Program-made: the position numbers and the translations under genes
Virus record (IMG/VR): IMGVR_UViG_2639763115_000003
Source: a virus
Lineage: Duplodnaviria > Heunggongvirae > Uroviricota > Caudoviricetes
Reading direction: 5' to 3' (one strand)
DNA: 8,358 bases
Part shown: in pieces, positions 1-8,358 of the stretch
Layout: the number at the start of each line of letters is the position of its first letter
How positions within the stretch are numbered: position 1 is the stretch's first letter
The notes under the pieces: generated by a model
Databases searched by the model: none
Seen by the model: the letters and a program-made list of their open reading frames with translations, nothing else
What the model was told of the DNA's origin: nothing

Positions 1-123
1 TTATTGACTTGCAGTTGAAGATAGTGCGCCAGTATTCGGGTCAAAGAATACCGCCCCAATAGAAATAACTGGCGCGTATGGCCCGTTGCCCATTGTTTCA
101 AGGTCAACCATCAAGTGATTCAT
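1..123 (-). CDS. DnaQ-like 3'-5' exonuclease, N-terminal fragment only (40 aa); possibly truncated or frameshifted
   Basis: Hand translation of the minus strand from ATG (plus 121-123) gives MNHLMVDLETMGNGPYAPVISIGAVFFDPNTGALSSTASQ, stopping at plus 1-3. DLETMG resembles the Exo I motif of DnaQ-like exonucleases. AAGGA lies 6 nt upstream and overlaps the ssb stop. Not in the ORF track (<60 aa). Confidence 0.35.
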   Translation of the reverse strand: MNHLMVDLETMGNGPYAPVISIGAVFFDPNTGALSSTASQ

Positions 124-131
124 GTAAGTCC

Positions 132-638
132 TTAAATTGCGTGAATAGCGTGACGAGGGAAGGGGAGAGTTACTGGTGCAAAGGGGATATCGTCGTCAAA
201 ATCCATCGGAGGTTCGTTGTGTTGTGCTGGTGATGATTGCTGCTGTGGCTTCTGTGATTGCCTGCTGGCTGCTTGTTGTTTGCTGTCGCCAATGCCGCCA
301 AGCATTTGCATCACGCCATTAATTCCGACATGAACCTCGGTTGTGTAACGGTCTTGCCCTGACTGGTCTTTCCACTTTCTGGTTCTCAGCATTCCCTCGA
401 AATAAATCTGATCACCTTTTTTCACATACTGCCCCACGACCTCAGCCAGTTTCCCGGATACAGCAACACGATGCCATTCAGTCAATTCCTTTTGCTCGCC
501 AGTATTTTTATCTCGCCATTGTTCTGACGTGGCTATTGTCAGGTTAGCGAACGCTGTTCCTGATGGTGAGTATCGAACTTCCGGGTCTTGTCCTACCCGA
601 CCAAGGATAATCACCTTATTTACGCCTCTGCTTGCCAT
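132..638 (-). CDS. ssb: Single-stranded DNA-binding protein
   Basis: 168 aa with an OB-fold-like N-terminus, a Gln/Pro-rich linker and the canonical acidic C-terminal tail DDDIPF. Its ATG directly abuts the stop of the upstream recombinase (TAAATG). Confidence 0.9.
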
Positions 639-1346
639 TTATGCCGCCTGTTTTAGTTCGTTAACTCTGATGTTCATTACCTGAACGCATTTAGCCTGCG
701 CCTCCTCGTTGCCAGCCATTAATTGCCAGTCACGCTGATAACGCTCGATGAGTTTTTTCTTGTCAGTTTCTGTTGATGCATAATCGCTGAAGTCTTTCAG
801 GATTTGTTCGCAGTCAACCGATGGAGATTTCTGGTTGGTATTTTCTGATGATGGTTTGTTATCTGATGCTGGGATTGCCCATCCCGGCAGCGATGGAGGG
901 AGCCAGTAAAATCCTGTTCCATCCTTCAGTTTTGCCCTGTGCCACCCCTGCTTTTTATCGAGAGATGTTTGTGCGAAACCTTCCTCAAGGTTATACAGAT
1001 ACCGACCGATTCCCCACTGAACGGCAGCGCGCTTCATTGCGCCGGAACGACCACCTTTGACGGCTTCTACCTGCGTGTTTTCAGCAGCATCCCATTTGGT
1101 TACCCATTCGGAATCAATCCTGATTGATATGCCGCATTCAACGCCTCCGTTGTTGGGAATATCGCGGTATTCATTGCGCCATCCTGCTTTGCCGCAAACA
1201 TCGTCCAGGCGTTTCATGATTGCCCTGTTCGTGACATAAGCCAGCACCATAGCCCACACCTTGCCATCGCGTGTTTTACCGCTTTGCTGTATTCGCCATT
1301 CGATATCTTCAGGGCTGAATGGCTCATCGAATTTATTCAAATCCAT
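639..1346 (-). CDS. Rad52-family single-strand annealing protein (Sak-like phage recombinase)
   Basis: 235 aa containing KGG..GAMKRAAVQWGIGRYLY, which resembles the Rad52/Sak annealing-protein signature. GAGGTG RBS 4 nt upstream of the ATG. Sits immediately upstream of ssb, the usual phage recombination-module arrangement. Confidence 0.75.
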   Translation of the reverse strand: MDLNKFDEPFSPEDIEWRIQQSGKTRDGKVWAMVLAYVTNRAIMKRLDDVCGKAGWRNEYRDIPNNGGVECGISIRIDSEWVTKWDAAENTQVEAVKGGRSGAMKRAAVQWGIGRYLYNLEEGFAQTSLDKKQGWHRAKLKDGTGFYWLPPSLPGWAIPASDNKPSSENTNQKSPSVDCEQILKDFSDYASTETDKKKLIERYQRDWQLMAGNEEAQAKCVQVMNIRVNELKQAA

Positions 1347-1354
1347 AATTCACC

Positions 1355-1525
1355 TCAGAATGGACATGGCCCAAGGAAATAACGCTGGTTTAATACTTCG
1401 ACTCGGGACAAATTAAGACATACCCGCATTCCTTCGCGGTCGCCATTATGGCGATACCAGAGAGCTTTCTGCGTGTACATGCGTCTCTGTAACTTGCTCT
1501 CCTTCACTGTGGTTGCAAGTGACAT
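1355..1525 (-). CDS. Hypothetical small protein (56 aa), alternative A
   Basis: Hand-translated: MSLATTVKESKLQRRMYTQKALWYRHNGDREGMRVCLNLSRVEVLNQRYFLGPCPF. GGAG RBS 6 nt upstream of the ATG; its stop lies within the RBS of the recombinase gene. Overlaps alternative B in another frame, so only one of the two may be real. Confidence 0.3.
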   Translation of the reverse strand: MSLATTVKESKLQRRMYTQKALWYRHNGDREGMRVCLNLSRVEVLNQRYFLGPCPF

Positions 1526-1604
1526 GAATATCTCCTTCGTTACCGATTAATTCTTTCATCTGACGAATGAATTCTTCGTCTGACCAGTTATCTGTAAAAC
1601 TCAT
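1446..1604 (-). CDS. Hypothetical small acidic protein (52 aa), alternative B
   Basis: Hand-translated: MSFTDNWSDEEFIRQMKELIGNEGDIHVTCNHSEGEQVTETHVHAESSLVSP. Its ATG overlaps the stop of the Kil-like ORF (ATGA). Occupies the position of P22 arf / lambda gam, just upstream of the recombinase. Confidence 0.3.
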   Translation of the reverse strand: MSFTDNWSDEEFIRQMKELIGNEGDIHVTCNHSEGEQVTETHVHAESSLVSP

Positions 1605-1753
1605 TTCCTGCGATACCACGGAAGGTTGATAGCTGATTTCATCGCTTTATTTGCTTCAAGCCACATTTTTGAATCACCAATAAATCTGGCTATTACTGCT
1701 TTGTTCTGTGCAGCACGAAGCATCTGGTGATTAATGGCTATTTCATTGCGCAT
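1601..1753 (-). CDS. kil: Kil-like small protein (50 aa), putative host cell-division inhibitor
   Basis: Hand-translated: MRNEIAINHQMLRAAQNKAVIARFIGDSKMWLEANKAMKSAINLPWYRRK. GGAGG RBS 4 nt upstream. The FIGDxKM segment matches my recollection of lambda Kil, and the position (after the cIII-like ORF, before the recombination genes) matches lambda gene order. Identity rests on memory, not a search. Confidence 0.4.
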   Translation of the reverse strand: MRNEIAINHQMLRAAQNKAVIARFIGDSKMWLEANKAMKSAINLPWYRRK

Positions 1754-1872
1754 AACGCCTCCAGTTGTTTCTTTGCTGCTCTGATTAATTGTTTAACTCG
1801 GCGTGATAATTCAGATTCGTGCGGGTAGAAAGCGGACATGACGCCGCTACCAGCTAAAATATATTCATTCAT
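1738..1872 (-). CDS. cIII: cIII-like small protein (44 aa), putative FtsH inhibitor
   Basis: Hand-translated: MNEYILAGSGVMSAFYPHESELSRRVKQLIRAAKKQLEALCAMK. Resembles lambda cIII in its N-terminal IAG motif and central amphipathic ES..L..R..K.L region. Its ATG overlaps the stop of the HNH gene (TAATGA). Confidence 0.4.
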   Translation of the reverse strand: MNEYILAGSGVMSAFYPHESELSRRVKQLIRAAKKQLEALCAMK

Positions 1873-2384
1873 TATTTGCTCCTGTAGAATTCGCCGTGAT
1901 GCTTTCTGGCAAAGTCGCAGTAAGCTTTTTTGGCATCTTCTAATTCATTAAAGTACCCTAGATGTTTTTTCTTCCCGTTTAATTTCCCATAGGCAGCCCA
2001 CTTTCTACTTTCCTTCTTCCATGTGACTCCTTTGCAACCTGATTTGTTGAGGGTGTTTATTTTACTATTCATTGAATTCTGTGAGTAAGTTGCAAGCCTC
2101 AGATTGCAAATTCTGTTATCTGTCTTTATGCCATTTATATGGTCGATAATACCTTCAGGCTCAACACCGAAAGTGATAATCCATGCAAGTCTATGTGCAG
2201 CATAGTGTCTTCCGTTAATGAAAATCCTTAAGTAGCCGCTTGTTGTTATTGTTCCGGCAGTTCCACCTATCTTCCTTGCTCCATAAGATTTTAGCCATGT
2301 GAACTCACCAGAAATAGGGTTATATTTGACAACATTATTAATCTCACTTAGGGAAATTAATTCAAGAATCTTTATAAATGCCAT
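1872..2384 (-). CDS. HNH endonuclease with C-terminal AP2 DNA-binding domain (homing-endonuclease-like)
   Basis: The ORF-track 175-aa frame begins at a TTG; the ATG five codons in has an AGGA RBS 6 nt upstream, so I call the start at 2384. HNH-like core (GYLRIFINGRHYAAHRLAWIITFG...IDHINGIKTDNRICNLRLATYSQNSMN) followed by an AP2-like segment (GVTWKKESRKWAAYGKLNGKKKHLGYFNELEDAKKAY). The gene is visibly more AT-rich than its flanks. Confidence 0.75.
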   Translation of the reverse strand: MAFIKILELISLSEINNVVKYNPISGEFTWLKSYGARKIGGTAGTITTSGYLRIFINGRHYAAHRLAWIITFGVEPEGIIDHINGIKTDNRICNLRLATYSQNSMNSKINTLNKSGCKGVTWKKESRKWAAYGKLNGKKKHLGYFNELEDAKKAYCDFARKHHGEFYRSK

Positions 2385-2477
2385 TTTATATCCTATCAAC
2401 TGCGTTCATTAATCAGCGTTTACGCTCATGAATAAACACCTCTCGTGAAGCATTATTGGTATGCGGTAAAGCCGCGC

Positions 2478-2846
2478 TCAGGCGGCTTTGATAGTCATAT
2501 CATCTGAATCAAATATTCCTGATGTATCGATATCGGTAATTCTTATTCCTTCACTACCATCCATTGGAGGCCATCCTTCCTGACCATTTCCATCATCCCA
2601 GTCGAACTCACAAACAACACCATATGCATTTAGGTCTTTTGAAATTGCTATAAGCAGAGCATGTTGCGCCAGCATGATTAATACAGCATTTAATAAAGAG
2701 CCGTGTTTATTTAGTCGGTATTCAGAGTCTGACCAGAAATTATTAATCTGGTGAAGTTTTTCCTCTGTCATTACGTCATGGTCGATTTCAATTTCTATTG
2801 ATGCTTTCCAGTCGTAATCAATGATGTATTTTTTGATGTTTGACAT
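2478..2846 (-). CDS. Hypothetical acidic protein (122 aa)
   Basis: Long ORF with AGGA about 10 nt upstream of the ATG. Strongly acidic, especially the C-terminal half (DWDDGNGQEGWPPMDGSEG...DSDD). No family recognised. Confidence 0.6.
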   Translation of the reverse strand: MSNIKKYIIDYDWKASIEIEIDHDVMTEEKLHQINNFWSDSEYRLNKHGSLLNAVLIMLAQHALLIAISKDLNAYGVVCEFDWDDGNGQEGWPPMDGSEGIRITDIDTSGIFDSDDMTIKAA

Positions 2847-2861
2847 CTATTCATTTCCTCA

Positions 2862-2892
2862 TAGATAAAAAATCGCCCTCACATAAGAGGGC
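2862..2892 (-). terminator. Rho-independent terminator in the pL operon (tL-like)
   Basis: On the minus strand: GCCCTC-TTATGT-GAGGGC hairpin (plus 2875-2892) followed by GATTTTTTATC. Lies between the 83-aa and 122-aa genes. Confidence 0.55.
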
Positions 2893-3028
2893 AAAGAAGA
2901 TTTCCAATAATCAGAACAAGTCGGCTCCTGTTTAGTTACGAGCGACATTGCTCCGTGTATTCACTCGTTGGAATGAATACACAGTGCAGTGTTTATTCTG
3001 TTGTTTGTGCCAAAAATAAAGGCCACCA

Positions 3029-3280
3029 TCAGGCAGCCTTGTTGTAAATGTTGCAGGTATCAAGTAAGTAATTAGATGGAGCGCCATAAATTATGAATTC
3101 ATCGTTTGTCGGGTCCATCTCCATCTCTTGGCCTATTGCCATTCTTGCGTCAGTGTCATCAGCGGCGAAGCATAAAACAGCCCACGCACCCATTGTTTTA
3201 AAAAGAACTGCAATTGGCTGTGGTTTTACTGAATTTGCGTTAGCGCGAAAATCATAAATCGCACTTTCATGAAATTCCAT
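3029..3280 (-). CDS. Hypothetical acidic protein (83 aa)
   Basis: ORF with GAGGTG RBS 4 nt upstream of the ATG. Net acidic. No family recognised. Confidence 0.55.
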   Translation of the reverse strand: MEFHESAIYDFRANANSVKPQPIAVLFKTMGAWAVLCFAADDTDARMAIGQEMEMDPTNDEFIIYGAPSNYLLDTCNIYNKAA

Positions 3281-3646: not shown

Positions 3647-3940
3647 TTAAGAAAACAAAATTTCGAATGCCTGGCGGATGGTTGCAGCATCTTCGTTCGC
3701 CAGTTTTTTTCGTTCATCTGATGACATCGATAACAATGCATTTCTCTCAATCAATGTAGCCAGCAGTTTAGATGCTATATTTTGAACGTCAGGGCTTAAC
3801 TCTAAGAATTTATTTCGACTACGTTCGAGAATAAGTTGTGTAGCGGGTGTATCTTTTAACTCAGATATTTTTATGTCCAATACATCAAGCATTTCTTTCG
3901 TTTTCTCAATTAGTAATTGTTCAATACATGAAATATCCAT
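3647..3940 (-). CDS. Hypothetical protein (97 aa) immediately downstream of N
   Basis: Internal ATG at 3938-3940 with a GAGGT RBS lying inside the end of N; N stops 2 nt upstream. Preferred over the 125-aa track ORF, whose 5' end overlaps N. Predicted helical; no family recognised. Confidence 0.5.
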   Translation of the reverse strand: MDISCIEQLLIEKTKEMLDVLDIKISELKDTPATQLILERSRNKFLELSPDVQNIASKLLATLIERNALLSMSSDERKKLANEDAATIRQAFEILFS

Positions 3941-3942
3941 AA

Positions 3943-4215
3943 TTACCTCGCCGTCAGTTGTTTTGATTTCCGGTAGCCTGCCGCGTAAATGGCTACGTTT
4001 GGCAGGCAAATACTTCCACTGCATTCATCTGCCTTCTTGCAGCGAAGGCTTCCGAGTGATGCTGCTTTGTCTGCCCTGACGCAACCAGAGAGCTTTAGCG
4101 CAATTTTTCGCGCCAGTGCTTCATTACTGCGTCGCTCGGCAATAAGTTCTGCTCTGCGAGCTTTGTAGCGGCTTTTTGCCGTACCTTTGGATTCTTTCCA
4201 GACAATGGTTACCAT
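3943..4215 (-). CDS. N: N-type transcription antiterminator (phage 21-type arginine-rich motif)
   Basis: Contains GTAKSRYKARRAELIAERR, which matches my recollection of the phage-21 N arginine-rich boxB-binding peptide. The second ATG (MVTIVWKESKG...) has a strong AAGGAG RBS 7 nt upstream, so the start is called at 4215, not 4245. The nut sites on both sides have matching CUAACC hexaloops. Confidence 0.8.
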   Translation of the reverse strand: MVTIVWKESKGTAKSRYKARRAELIAERRSNEALARKIALKLSGCVRADKAASLGSLRCKKADECSGSICLPNVAIYAAGYRKSKQLTAR

Positions 4216-4325
4216 GATGGTCTCCTTTAAGTGGCTTTGGCGCATGACGCGTCGAGGTGCTTATCTTCTCGATCGCTGTCTTGCAGCTGCAATTCGCGCC
4301 ATCCCCAAAACCACTCAAGTTCTGG

Positions 4326-4529: not shown

Positions 4530-5180
4530 TTAAGGAAGGTTTGCTAGCTTGGCATCAACGACAACGCCAATGATTTTACAGTTCCCATTGATTTCAATCA
4601 TTGGGTATTGTGGATTGAGTGGTTTCAGGAATTTTCTACCGGCATCAATAACTAACTTTTTGAATGTCGCCTCGTTTTCCCCTTCAAGTTTGGCGACTAC
4701 CAGCTTTCCATTACGTGGTTCGACTTCTGGGTCGACGAGAATAATCATCCCCTCAGGAATACTCAGTCCTGCCGGGGCAGTCATTGAATCGCCTTTAACG
4801 TCGAGCCAAAAAGAGTCTTCAGAACAATCTACCGTTGTGTCGTACCAGTTATCTATTGCACGCCTATGATATGGCTCTACAGCTTCCATCCAACATCCTG
4901 CGCTTACCCAACTAATTAGAGGATACGAACCTCTTGGATCATGCCTGCTGTGATAGGCAATGTTTGAAAGACTATCCTCTCCTTTCAACAGGTAATCAGG
5001 GGAGCACTGCAAAGCCTTGGCTAAGGCCAATAGGTTTTCGCCATTGGGCTCAGTTTCAGATCGCTCCCATTGGGAAATAGCAACATTAGACACGCCAACC
5101 ATCTTGCCAAGGGCAGCCTGCCTAATCTTGAGTTCTTTTCTGCGAGCGCGAATACGCTCACCCATCAGTTGTGTATTCAT
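4530..5180 (-). CDS. c2: Prophage repressor, P22 C2 type (cI family: N-terminal HTH, C-terminal LexA-like autocleavage domain)
   Basis: 216 aa, MNTQLMGERIRARRKELKIRQAALGKMVGVSNVAISQWERSETEPNGENLLALAKALQCSPDYLLKG... is near-identical to P22 C2 as I recall it. The SxxK-type C-terminal domain (GDSM...KL) is present. Confidence 0.92.
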   Translation of the reverse strand: MNTQLMGERIRARRKELKIRQAALGKMVGVSNVAISQWERSETEPNGENLLALAKALQCSPDYLLKGEDSLSNIAYHSRHDPRGSYPLISWVSAGCWMEAVEPYHRRAIDNWYDTTVDCSEDSFWLDVKGDSMTAPAGLSIPEGMIILVDPEVEPRNGKLVVAKLEGENEATFKKLVIDAGRKFLKPLNPQYPMIEINGNCKIIGVVVDAKLANLP

Positions 5181-6893: not shown

Positions 6894-7001
6894 ATGAAAT
6901 CAAAAATCAAATCGCTACTGGTCGCTGGTTATAACCACGGCTGGTTAAGTATTTCGTTTGTCAATTTCTGGTTTAAAAATCTCAATCTGAGGGAATCATG
7001 A
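6894..7001 (+). CDS. Hypothetical small hydrophobic peptide (35 aa)
   Basis: Hand-translated: [44 protein letters not shown] 3 nt upstream. Its stop overlaps the ATG of the downstream primase-like gene (ATGA). Confidence 0.3.
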
Positions 7002-7897
7002 CGCCAAGTGAACTTAGCGACCTGCTTTGGGCGCAGGTTGACAGGGTGGCTCCGCACCTGTTGCCAAACGGCAAGAAAGAGGGGCATGAGTGGGTTGCCG
7101 GTAACGTCAACGGTGACAAGGGAAACAGCCTTAAGGTCAACCTTAGCGGCAAGAAAAAATGGGCTGATTTCGCTGAGGGAGACGGCGGTGACATGCTTGA
7201 TTTGTGGATGGCATGCCGTGGAATTAACCTGCATCAGGCTATGCAGGAAGCGAAAGCATTTCTCGGTATCAAGGATGACGATCACCATTTCGATGCCAAA
7301 CGTGAGAAGAAATTCTCCAGACCTGATCGCAAGAAAATCGCCCGCTACGTTACCAGAACAGAATCCCATCTTGAGTACCTGCAATCGCGTGGCATATCGC
7401 CAGAAGTCGTAAAGCGCTACGAGGTTGTCAGCGGCAAGGTGTGGAATGGAGAACGAGAACTGGATGCTCTGGTGATTCCGTACAAACGCGATGGTGAGTT
7501 GTTGCAGGTCAAGCGAATCAGCACTGAGCGCCCGGACGGGAAGAAAGTCATTATGGCAGAAGGTGATTGCGAACCTTGTCTGTTCGGATGGCAGGCTCTG
7601 GACGCTGGCGTGAGGGCGGTTGTACTTTGCGAAGGCGAAATTGATTGTATGAGCTATGCGCAATACGGCATCTCGGCGTTAAGGACGATTGGAGCAACTG
7701 CGACTCTTGGTGTATCAATGGGGCTTGAGGCTGGTTTTGGTGCAATTATGCGCTTGTATGAATCCAAAGCCGCAAGGGATATGCTTCTTCGTTTGGCTAA
7801 CACAAAAGCAGGAACACCAGCCTATGAAAGAGCGCTAAATAATGCTGCGAATGCTATACGTCCTATACTTGCAAGCCAAATTACAGCAGAACAATAG
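6998..7897 (+). CDS. Primase-like protein with a partial Toprim domain; probably truncated or fused at a deletion junction
   Basis: 299 aa. N-terminal primase-like region ([37 protein letters not shown]) and Toprim motif 1 ([18 protein letters not shown]) are present, but the expected downstream DxD motif is absent. The last 60 or so residues are Ala-rich and unrelated. No helicase gene follows. Confidence 0.6.
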
Positions 7898-7948
7898 AAT
7901 AAATAATTAACTAAGCACATAACCACTGAAAGATAACAAACGCAACGA

Positions 7949-7970
7949 CCCAGCTTCGGCTGGGTTTTTT
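7949..7970 (+). terminator. Rho-independent terminator
   Basis: CCCAGC-TTCG-GCTGGG hairpin followed by TTTTTT on the plus strand. Confidence 0.7.
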
Positions 7971-8028
7971 ATGCCCAAAATTCACCGTAGCCACTCAGCG
8001 ACGTTTCCTTGTATCTGGAGCAAATTAA

Positions 8029-8358
8029 ATGACAGACATTACAGCCAATGTTGTAGTGAGTATGCCTTCGCAACTCTTCACTATGGCGCGTTCTTTTAAA
8101 GCCGTAGCCAATGGAAAAATTTATATCGGTAAAATTGACACTGATCCGGTAAATCCTGAAAACCAGATTCCAGTATATCTGGAACGAGAAGACGGCACTC
8201 ATGTTCAAGTGTCACAACCAATCGTTATAAATGCTGCCGGATATCCGGTATATAACGGACAGATTGCCAAGTTCGTAACTGTGCAAGGCCATTCTATGGC
8301 TGTTTATGATGCGTATGGTTCGCAGCAGTTCTATTTTCCCAATGTGCTGAAGTATGAT
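8029..8358 (+). CDS. Tailspike protein, N-terminal head-binding domain (P22 gp9 family); partial, runs off the window
   Basis: [50 protein letters not shown]...[28 protein letters not shown] closely matches the N-terminus of P22 tailspike as I recall it. GGAG RBS upstream. The frame is open to the window end. Confidence 0.85.

Follow-up and report, generated by a model that had tools for sequence, protein, structure and literature searches.

The window analysed here (the whole stretch of 8,358 bp of IMG/VR virus record IMGVR_UViG_2639763115_000003, to which positions refer unless a locus is named) holds the immunity region and the early region of a P22/HK-like lambdoid prophage and is 99.99% identical to a stretch of the chromosome of Escherichia coli 2017-02-2CC. 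On its minus strand the order is N, small accessory open reading frames (ORFs), a phrog_2471 gene, a DUF2528 gene (lambda Ea10-like), a gene for a protein with an HNH and an AP2 domain, cIII, kil, two further small ORFs, a Rad52/Erf-type annealase gene and ssb. The N antiterminator at 3943-4245 marks this operon as the early-left (pL) operon. In lambda, ea10 is directly followed by cIII and kil, and the cIII-kil block is a conserved flank of the HNH cassette in all carriers (loci L003-L005 and L178-L183). The HNH-AP2 gene is the subject of this analysis. A previous reading of the letters alone (the sequence-only reading) had proposed that it was inserted in the early operon as a selfish endonuclease; its placement within pL is borne out by the gene order. 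The features needed for the argument are the following.

1872-2384, minus strand: HNH-AP2 ORF of 170 amino acids (HNH_3 core at residues 61-105, AP2 at around 116-166, N-terminal beta-rich region).
1855..2438, minus strand: cassette, consisting of a 54-nt leader, the HNH ORF and the rewritten cIII codons 1-6, as delimited by the blastn breakpoints and the junctions.
2385..2438, minus strand: cassette-borne leader, with AGGA six nt ahead of the HNH ATG.
2439..2467, minus strand: leader of cIII, ACCGCATACCAATAATGCTTCACGAGAGG, which is shared and conserved in lambda, HK106 and mEpX2, with the upstream cassette junction at its 3' end.
1879..1883, minus strand: cIII Shine-Dalgarno sequence AGGAG, inside the final HNH codons TAC AGG AGC AAA TAA (Y R S K stop).
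1738-1872, minus strand: cIII, 44 amino acids, HK022-type (Pfam PF08134, E=6.8e-26).
1824..1851, minus strand: hairpin box GGTAGCGGCGTCATGTCCGCTTTCTACC in cIII, defined by alignment and RNA folds, with the downstream cassette junction at its 5' edge.
1601-1753, minus strand: kil (Pfam Lambda_Kil), downstream of cIII.
2478-2846, minus strand: DUF2528 gene (Pfam), the upstream neighbour of the HNH ORF.

In the ORF listing the gene appeared as a minus-strand frame of 1872..2399 starting from TTG. The ATG at 2384, which yields the 170-residue protein MAFIKIL..., matches the start of all homologues, and the coordinates 1872-2384 of the sequence-only reading are therefore the right ones. The ORF is intact and free-standing, with its own ATG and Shine-Dalgarno sequence, and lies between DUF2528 and cIII, outside an intron or intein. 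Pfam recognised HNH_3 (PF13392) over the full model, positions 1-46 (E=1.7e-15; 56.8 bits at a cut-off of 24.8), and the match to phrog_99, 'HNH endonuclease', had an E-value of 1.5e-68. The Pfam score for AP2 was 29.2 bits, which is below the cut-off of 33.3, and this domain was therefore examined by structure. An AlphaFold2 model made with 39 homologues as input had a mean predicted local distance difference test score (pLDDT) of 91.4. Its C-terminal domain of three strands plus a helix superposes on the AP2 domain of AtERF1 (1GCC) with a root-mean-square deviation (rmsd) of 1.2 A over 51 columns at 33% identity, and on that of TEM1 (7ET5) with an rmsd of 1.2 A. Foldseek gave a probability of 1.00 for both, with weak E-values (0.05-0.07) as expected for a domain of 50 residues. 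At the level of the predicted model the AP2 fold of the C-terminal domain is confirmed, and the combination of an HNH core and an AP2-like domain that had been read from the letters stands.

By sequence, the closest solved structure is that of I-HmuI, the intron endonuclease of phage SPO1 (1U3E; phmmer E=0.016, residues 46-121), in which D74, H75, N87 and N96 align to D81, H82, N94 and N103 of the window protein; they comprise the general-base His and the Asp and Asn that serve as metal ligands or structurally. In a Foldseek search with the whole model 1U3E was absent from the top 50, and the HNH assignment is therefore based on Pfam and the phmmer alignment. All four residues are invariant across the alignment of 39 homologues, and the catalytic His and Asn, the loss of which had been named as a refutation, are thus retained. 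Pairs of the CxxC type do not occur in the protein. Between lineages the proportion of non-synonymous differences (pN) was around 0.20 and that of synonymous differences (pS) 0.70-0.83, the synonymous sites being saturated, and the ratio of the substitution rates (dN/dS) was around 0.07-0.12. This low ratio implies that the protein was kept functional for a long time. The codon comparison shows the ORF to be under purifying selection, and the protein is predicted to be catalytically complete.

When the HNH gene alone was compared by megablast to 50,697 phage records no DNA match was obtained, and the empty site was therefore located via the flanks. Phage mEpX2 aligns to window positions 29-1854 (97.3%) and 2439-3024 (98.3%) in blastn, and HK106 has the same downstream breakpoint, at window position 1854. 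The 584 bp of 1855-2438 stand in place of about 50-56 bp in these two phages (about 54-56 bp in mEpX2). Read in the direction of transcription, the empty allele is ...GCTTCACGAGAGG / CATTTTCGTTATGCAATCAAATATAAGGAGTTACCCATGATGCACTTTCAGCTCGC / GGGTAGCGGCG..., that is the leader also found in lambda, then cIII's own Shine-Dalgarno sequence (TAAGGAG) and first codons (MMHFQL). The gene is thus absent at this exact position from mEpX2, from HK106 and from most of the E. coli genomes that match the region (see below), which was the comparison that the sequence-only reading had proposed.

The neighbouring DUF2528 gene behaves as a clean present/absent block as well, of 400 bp (2465-2864) and with a junction 26 bp from that of the HNH cassette. 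The block is absent from loci L004 and L179-L183 and from HK106, and present in the window, L178, mEpX2 and lambda. All four combinations of presence and absence of the two genes occur, with the indels 26 bp apart (four-gamete test): both genes are found in the window, L003 and L178, HNH alone in L004, DUF2528 alone in mEpX2 and many prophages, and neither in HK106.

The coupling to the downstream gene is tight. The last A of the HNH stop codon TAA (1874-1872) is also the first base of the cIII ATG (1872-1870), giving the TAATGA overlap that had been noted before with a 'cIII-like' ORF, now identified as cIII by PF08134. Because the middle of the empty allele is replaced, the cassette removes the native ribosome-binding site of cIII and supplies a new one, and the AGGAG within the last HNH codons is located six nt before the cIII ATG, which is the spacing of the empty allele. 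The first seven codons of cIII (MNEYILA) are cassette-derived, and from codon 8 onward the protein is identical to that of the HNH-free mEpX2 and HK106. The junction ACAGGAG..TAATG recurs in lineages that are just 52-69% identical, DNA conservation is highest at the 3' end of the HNH gene (ACAGGAGCAAATAATG in four lineages, and nearly the same in another two), and the AGGAG-encoding ...YRSK tail is confined to the cIII-linked clade. In L006, L007 and L009 the lambda-type leader box TATGCAA(T) is kept just upstream of the HNH start, the ORF being inserted there exactly between the cIII leader and the ATG. The leader upstream of HNH in L006 (~3940-3960) also holds a palindrome, GCGCTCTTAAGAGAGCG, that includes the boxA-like CGCTCTTAA.

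On the other side of the cassette, a 20-nt core, TAGCGGCGTCATGTCCGCTT (1830-1849, cIII codons 8-14), is invariant across lineages with surroundings of around 65% identity, with or without HNH. It belongs to a hairpin that forms around 20 nt past the AUG and has the same fold with or without the insert. The core may be the target of the nuclease, but carriers have it just as well and the mRNA hairpin is unchanged by the insert; the box may be explained at least as well as a cIII RNA/translational element or as a crossover point. The first seven cIII codons have diverged in all carriers (MNEYILA, MNNFAVF, MNTIALY and MNAYLIS, versus MMHFQLA), which would fit target-site immunity.

Within the cassette-borne leader two 15-nt blocks, GTTTATTCATGAGCG (2423-2437) and CGCTGATTAATGAAC (2404-2418), are common to the window and the Cedecea neteri copy (L015, ~2920-3000), although the proteins are just around 50% identical. 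A search of the 50,697 phage records with this leader gave chance matches at most. The leader also contains ATTAATGAACGCA, which equals the junction of HNH stop and cIII start in L009. It could be the fossil of an earlier junction, and hence of serial invasion, or a regulatory site, and is recorded here as unexplained; the fossil interpretation is based on this one 13-mer together with the similarity to the Cedecea leader.

All relatives of at least ~48% identity for which the context was examined are located directly upstream of cIII. They derive from E. coli, Atlantibacter, Yersinia, Cedecea, Pantoea, Hafnia phage Meifeng and probably Serratia, and in all but the last the cIII is confirmed by Pfam. 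The 64-69% identical relatives (P0003; P0004, from another E. coli; and P0006, from Atlantibacter hermannii according to NCBI) are all exactly 170 amino acids long and show the same one-base TAATG overlap with cIII, followed by kil. The relatives of 48-55% identity found at cIII comprise a metagenomic lineage shared with Hafnia phage Meifeng, as well as Yersinia sp., Yersinia rochesterensis, Cedecea neteri and Pantoea latae, the last two with a short spacer and a separate Shine-Dalgarno sequence instead of the overlap. Meifeng, Y. rochesterensis and Serratia were examined after the rule of the cIII site had been framed and hence served as blind tests. In Hafnia phage vB_HpaM_Meifeng (MW749008) we recovered an unannotated cIII of 52 amino acids (L184, 2959-3114; Lambda_CIII, 26.7 bits at a cut-off of 25.7) that overlaps the stop codon of an annotated 'putative endonuclease'. 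The copy of Serratia odorifera is followed by a cIII-like ORF of 56 amino acids (MMYAIAG...) without a Pfam match.

Outside this group the connection with cIII is lost. The contigs of one genome per species gave only relatives of at most 50% identity, since the representatives lack the close clade, and were used as an outgroup: among 80 loci, cIII was present within 3 kb of only the closest one (Pantoea, 50% identity). Among 80 viral contigs it was nearby only for the identical copy, a Pantoea-type copy and one 47% relative (L115, 1965-2513), which lies just downstream of cIII and overlaps its 3' end. For more distant loci of the family cIII was found within 2-3 kb in 0 of 79 and 1 of 77 cases. 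When 157 distinct family proteins were placed in a neighbour-joining tree, the nine that are linked to cIII fell into an exclusive clade. Judged by these sequence comparisons, the gene is a member of an old, exclusive HNH-AP2 clade that is tied to the start of cIII, beyond a one-off invasion.

Within E. coli the gene is rare. A 901-bp segment around the gene (kil/cIII and/or DUF2528) is matched in 1,856 of the 5,426 complete genomes, and the gene itself is carried at an identity of at least 99.4% by ten of the 5,426, eight times in full and twice truncated by IS1. A uniform presence across relatives, which would have spoken against an invasion, was thus not observed. At that same level of identity the cassette resides in at least eight different prophage backgrounds. 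The upstream neighbours among carriers include DUF2528, the phrog_2471 gene, Nmad5, a second HNH gene and other small ORFs; beyond kil there is a Rad52+ssb, an ERF or a RecT module, and the repressors differ. For polymorphism we compared ten carriers, namely the window, IMG/VR contig L098 and eight loci on E. coli chromosomes. The cassette contained 6 variable sites in 567 nt and the downstream flank 13 in 300 nt (Fisher p=0.003); with both flanks taken together (18 in 326 nt) the difference amounted to p=0.0001, and the cassette is around four-fold less polymorphic. Low polymorphism is what one expects if the cassette spread more recently than the surrounding DNA, and it leaves undecided how the spread occurred. 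The HNH genes of the sister lineages, of the L006 and L007 types, had no match in the 5,426 complete genomes. In a further 33 E. coli genomes a 71%-identical match of 139 nt proved to belong to another HNH_3 gene, which is located in the nin region and not at cIII. That gene lies between a DUF1364 gene and rusA (L097, 2310-2834, E. coli CFSAN064035, and 32 further genomes).

Considering the domain architecture, the intact active site, the nucleotide-precise presence/absence and the fidelity of the clade to one site, we estimate at around 60% the probability that the gene is a free-standing homing-type HNH-AP2 endonuclease of a lineage specialised on the cIII site, with active or recently active mobility. 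The earlier proposal of a selfish endonuclease that invaded the pL operon is supported by the empty site, by the rarity of the gene (10 of 5,426) and by the intact, invariant catalytic residues. The mechanism that we envisage would be as follows. With N as antiterminator, pL would drive transcription of the gene in lytic growth or after induction; the 100 nt ahead of it revealed no promoter-like site on its strand, and the terminator-like hairpins in the vicinity, at 2894-2873 and 3040-3019, all lie farther upstream. Probably as a monomer, the protein would bind via AP2 at or near the empty cIII leader/start, where its single HNH site would nick or cut HNH-free relatives. The damaged copy would then be repaired from the HNH-bearing genome by the Erf/Rad52/RecT recombinase of the phage, which is encoded a few genes downstream, and the repair would transfer the cassette, the crossovers falling upstream in the conserved leader and downstream in the conserved cIII hairpin box at 1830-1849. 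The rewritten cIII codons 1-7 may protect the carrier from self-cleavage. Since the cassette exchanges the native ribosome-binding site for one inside the nuclease gene, cIII would remain expressed, and a simple deletion of the nuclease would come at the cost of cIII expression.

Several observations weigh against a homing element. The gene had been described as visibly more AT-rich than its neighbours. Its GC content of 37.6% is indeed low compared to the 44.6% of the window (just 4.7% of the 513-nt windows were equally low), to cIII (42.2%) and to the recombination genes (48-49%), but not to DUF2528 (37.4%) and orf125 (38.1%), and kil is at 40.5%; its composition does not set the gene apart from the adjacent accessory genes. 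The prophage that carries the window's copy is a remnant with extensive deletions, in which homing cannot take place at present, and our literature search yielded no cleavage, target-site or inheritance data for the protein or for members of its clade. Between lineages HNH is 67-70% and cIII-kil 61-66% identical at the nucleotide level, an about equal divergence, for which a long shared inheritance as one block is at least as good an explanation as repeated homing. The pattern of polymorphism and the multiple backgrounds could also stem from general lambdoid recombination, and mosaicism by homologous recombination at conserved linkers could on its own yield the indels, the four gametes and the varied contexts. 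These points lead to an alternative that we consider possible though rather unlikely, namely that the gene is an ordinary accessory module of the lambdoid mosaic. Its nuclease would then serve the phage, for instance through breakdown or nicking of the DNA of host or competitors, or as a stimulus to recombination beside the Erf/RecT genes, and its patchiness would result from shuffling and loss of modules at conserved linkers. The DUF2528 gene, which encodes no nuclease, shows the same clean present/absent polymorphism, the DNA upstream shows no relationship between lineages, as is the case wherever mosaic segments meet, and strong purifying selection is expected for a gene that is useful to the phage. 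An accessory module does not, however, account well for the strict fidelity to one site across genera, with other family members elsewhere, which is typical of target-site-bound elements, nor for a cassette that is significantly less polymorphic than its flanks among carriers. The domain architecture is moreover that of known homing-type nucleases (PMC10448857), and a frequency of 0.2% of the genomes is very low for a beneficial gene.

It is improbable, in our view, that the protein is a defence or superinfection-exclusion nuclease that cuts incoming phage DNA and thereby protects the lysogen. The weak PADLOC match to the generic 'HEase' model (E=4.5e-5) would be in line with it. The early-left regions of prophages often carry exclusion genes. 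Against a defence role, the gene lies in the pL operon downstream of N without a promoter-like site upstream, and should therefore be silent in a repressed lysogen, and beyond the generic homing-endonuclease model no defined defence system was matched; PADLOC found no matches either for the neighbours DUF2528, the phrog_2471 protein and orf125. Least probable we consider a domesticated DNA-binding regulator, of which the AP2 domain would control transcription or translation around cIII and the nuclease would be vestigial. AP2 domains have been co-opted as regulators elsewhere (PMC10448857) and the tight coupling to cIII is conserved, but a vestigial nuclease should decay, whereas the four catalytic/metal-binding positions are invariant in the 39 homologues and the HNH core is under purifying selection.

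The homing reading can be extended in a tentative way, which we would sooner doubt than adopt at present. The expression of cIII may be tied to the presence and translation of the nuclease gene, a kind of 'deletion insurance' that would shift the timing or level of the FtsH inhibitor cIII and with it the decision between lysis and lysogeny. In co-infections the nuclease would moreover target the conserved cIII 5' region of rival lambdoid phages and so set the mosaic boundary at the cIII leader. If true, this would be a homing element that persists at one regulatory gene across the Enterobacterales by way of coupling to its expression.

The protein can be compared to several known systems. I-HmuI nicks one strand. 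It resembles the window protein in the D-H...N...N active site, in a preceding beta-rich region that contacts DNA and in being monomer-sized with a single active site; it is different in being intron-encoded and in having a helical, helix-turn-helix C-terminal domain instead of AP2. By analogy, nicking is the likely chemistry of the HNH-AP2 protein. As to the HNH-AP2 proteins themselves, passages in PMC2993671 and PMC10448857 (the latter citing Magnani et al. 2004, PMC520932) treat them as an established class of putative homing endonucleases, occurring in phages, cyanobacteria and ciliates and including proteins of T4-like phages (PMC2993671) and the 'IPA-HNH' proteins of ICP1-like phages (PMC10448857). 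The window gene shares with this class the order of an N-terminal HNH and a C-terminal AP2 domain, the small free-standing phage ORF, the patchy occurrence and the location at boundaries of genetic exchange. The known cases, however, are mostly from lytic phages and lie beside essential genes for replication, structure or nucleotide metabolism, whereas the cIII clade is found in temperate lambdoid phages, at the non-essential regulatory gene cIII of which it carries the ribosome-binding site. Moreover, the HNH domains of the ICP1 IPA-HNH proteins are too divergent for Pfam HNH_3 (PMC10448857), unlike the window protein with its clear match.

The free-standing endonuclease genes of T4-type phages (Seg of the GIY-YIG and Mob of the HNH family) are likewise intergenic ORFs whose presence varies among closely related phages. 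For these (SegB, PMC2330249; MobE, PMC2790892; review, PMC2988022) preferential inheritance is achieved by cutting the genome that lacks the homing endonuclease gene near the insertion site, with co-conversion of the flanking markers and with recombination supplied by the host phage (PMC2330249, PMC2790892, PMC2988022). They belong to another phage group, Mob pairs HNH_3 with a zinc finger (PMC10448857), and their activity has been demonstrated whereas that of the window protein is predicted. The terminase-associated HNH proteins of cos phages (PMC3592412) are also HNH nucleases of lambdoid-type and siphophage genomes, but they are encoded beside cos and the terminase, function in DNA packaging and represent different HNH subfamilies, which bind zinc through CxxC pairs (PMC3592412). 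The window protein does not belong with them, given its location in the pL operon (Ea10-like/cIII), the lack of CxxC pairs and the HNH_3+AP2 type.

The literature search recovered no paper that describes an HNH gene at the start of cIII; a paper on phage epsilon34 mentions a fusion involving HNH at another place of the early-left operon. Elements of this kind are well known, and what is new is a documented lambdoid lineage for which the empty site is defined and in which the downstream gene has its ribosome-binding site embedded in the element. The HNH-AP2 class is recognised yet almost uncharacterised, and work on homing in phages has mostly concerned lytic phages of the T4, SPO1 and ICP1 types. 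The cIII clade offers a natural system in tractable lambdoid coliphages, with an empty site that is defined to the nucleotide and the cIII leader/start as the candidate target region. Culture collections already hold the empty-site partners mEpX2 and HK106, and the isolated Hafnia phage Meifeng carries a relative. The cassette furthermore illustrates how an operon can receive an insertion without silencing of the downstream gene, the ribosome-binding site of cIII being encoded in the 3' end of the element, and it suggests that one concrete boundary of the lambdoid mosaic, at the cIII leader, may be nuclease-driven.

The remaining features of the window are the following.

3943-4245, minus strand: N antiterminator (Pfam N_peptide, E=4.8e-17).
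3647-4024, minus strand: orf125, an ORF of 125 amino acids with neither a Pfam nor a PHROG match.
3029-3280, minus strand: phrog_2471 gene.
639-1346, minus strand: Rad52/Erf-type annealase gene.
132-638, minus strand: ssb.
4530-5180, minus strand: LexA-family cI-like repressor gene.
Beyond the repressor gene, plus strand: cro, cII and a replication gene.
1-130 and 6998-8358: ends of the prophage remnant (in L003, 3968-4424 and 11299-12901).

At the left end of the remnant a truncated exonuclease gene abuts a truncated host gene with an Hpt domain; on the right side a toprim-domain gene is directly followed by a tailspike (head-binding) gene, and the nin, lysis and morphogenesis genes are missing. 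Searches of the window against Rfam and NCBIfam returned no RNA family and no named family, respectively. Both as listed and in the RefSeq annotation, orf125 overlaps the 3' end of N by 82 nt; an internal Met at codon 29 (ATG 3940-3938), just past the N stop codon, would give a non-overlapping product of 97 amino acids. Finally, unrelated HNH genes were encountered in the same early-left operons, directly upstream of the cassette HNH gene in L179 (3936-4352), between recT and gp157 in L183 (1150-1617) and between kil and erf in L010 (1129-1599). With these and the L115 gene that overlaps the 3' end of cIII, the region of pL recombination genes resembles a hotspot of HNH insertion.

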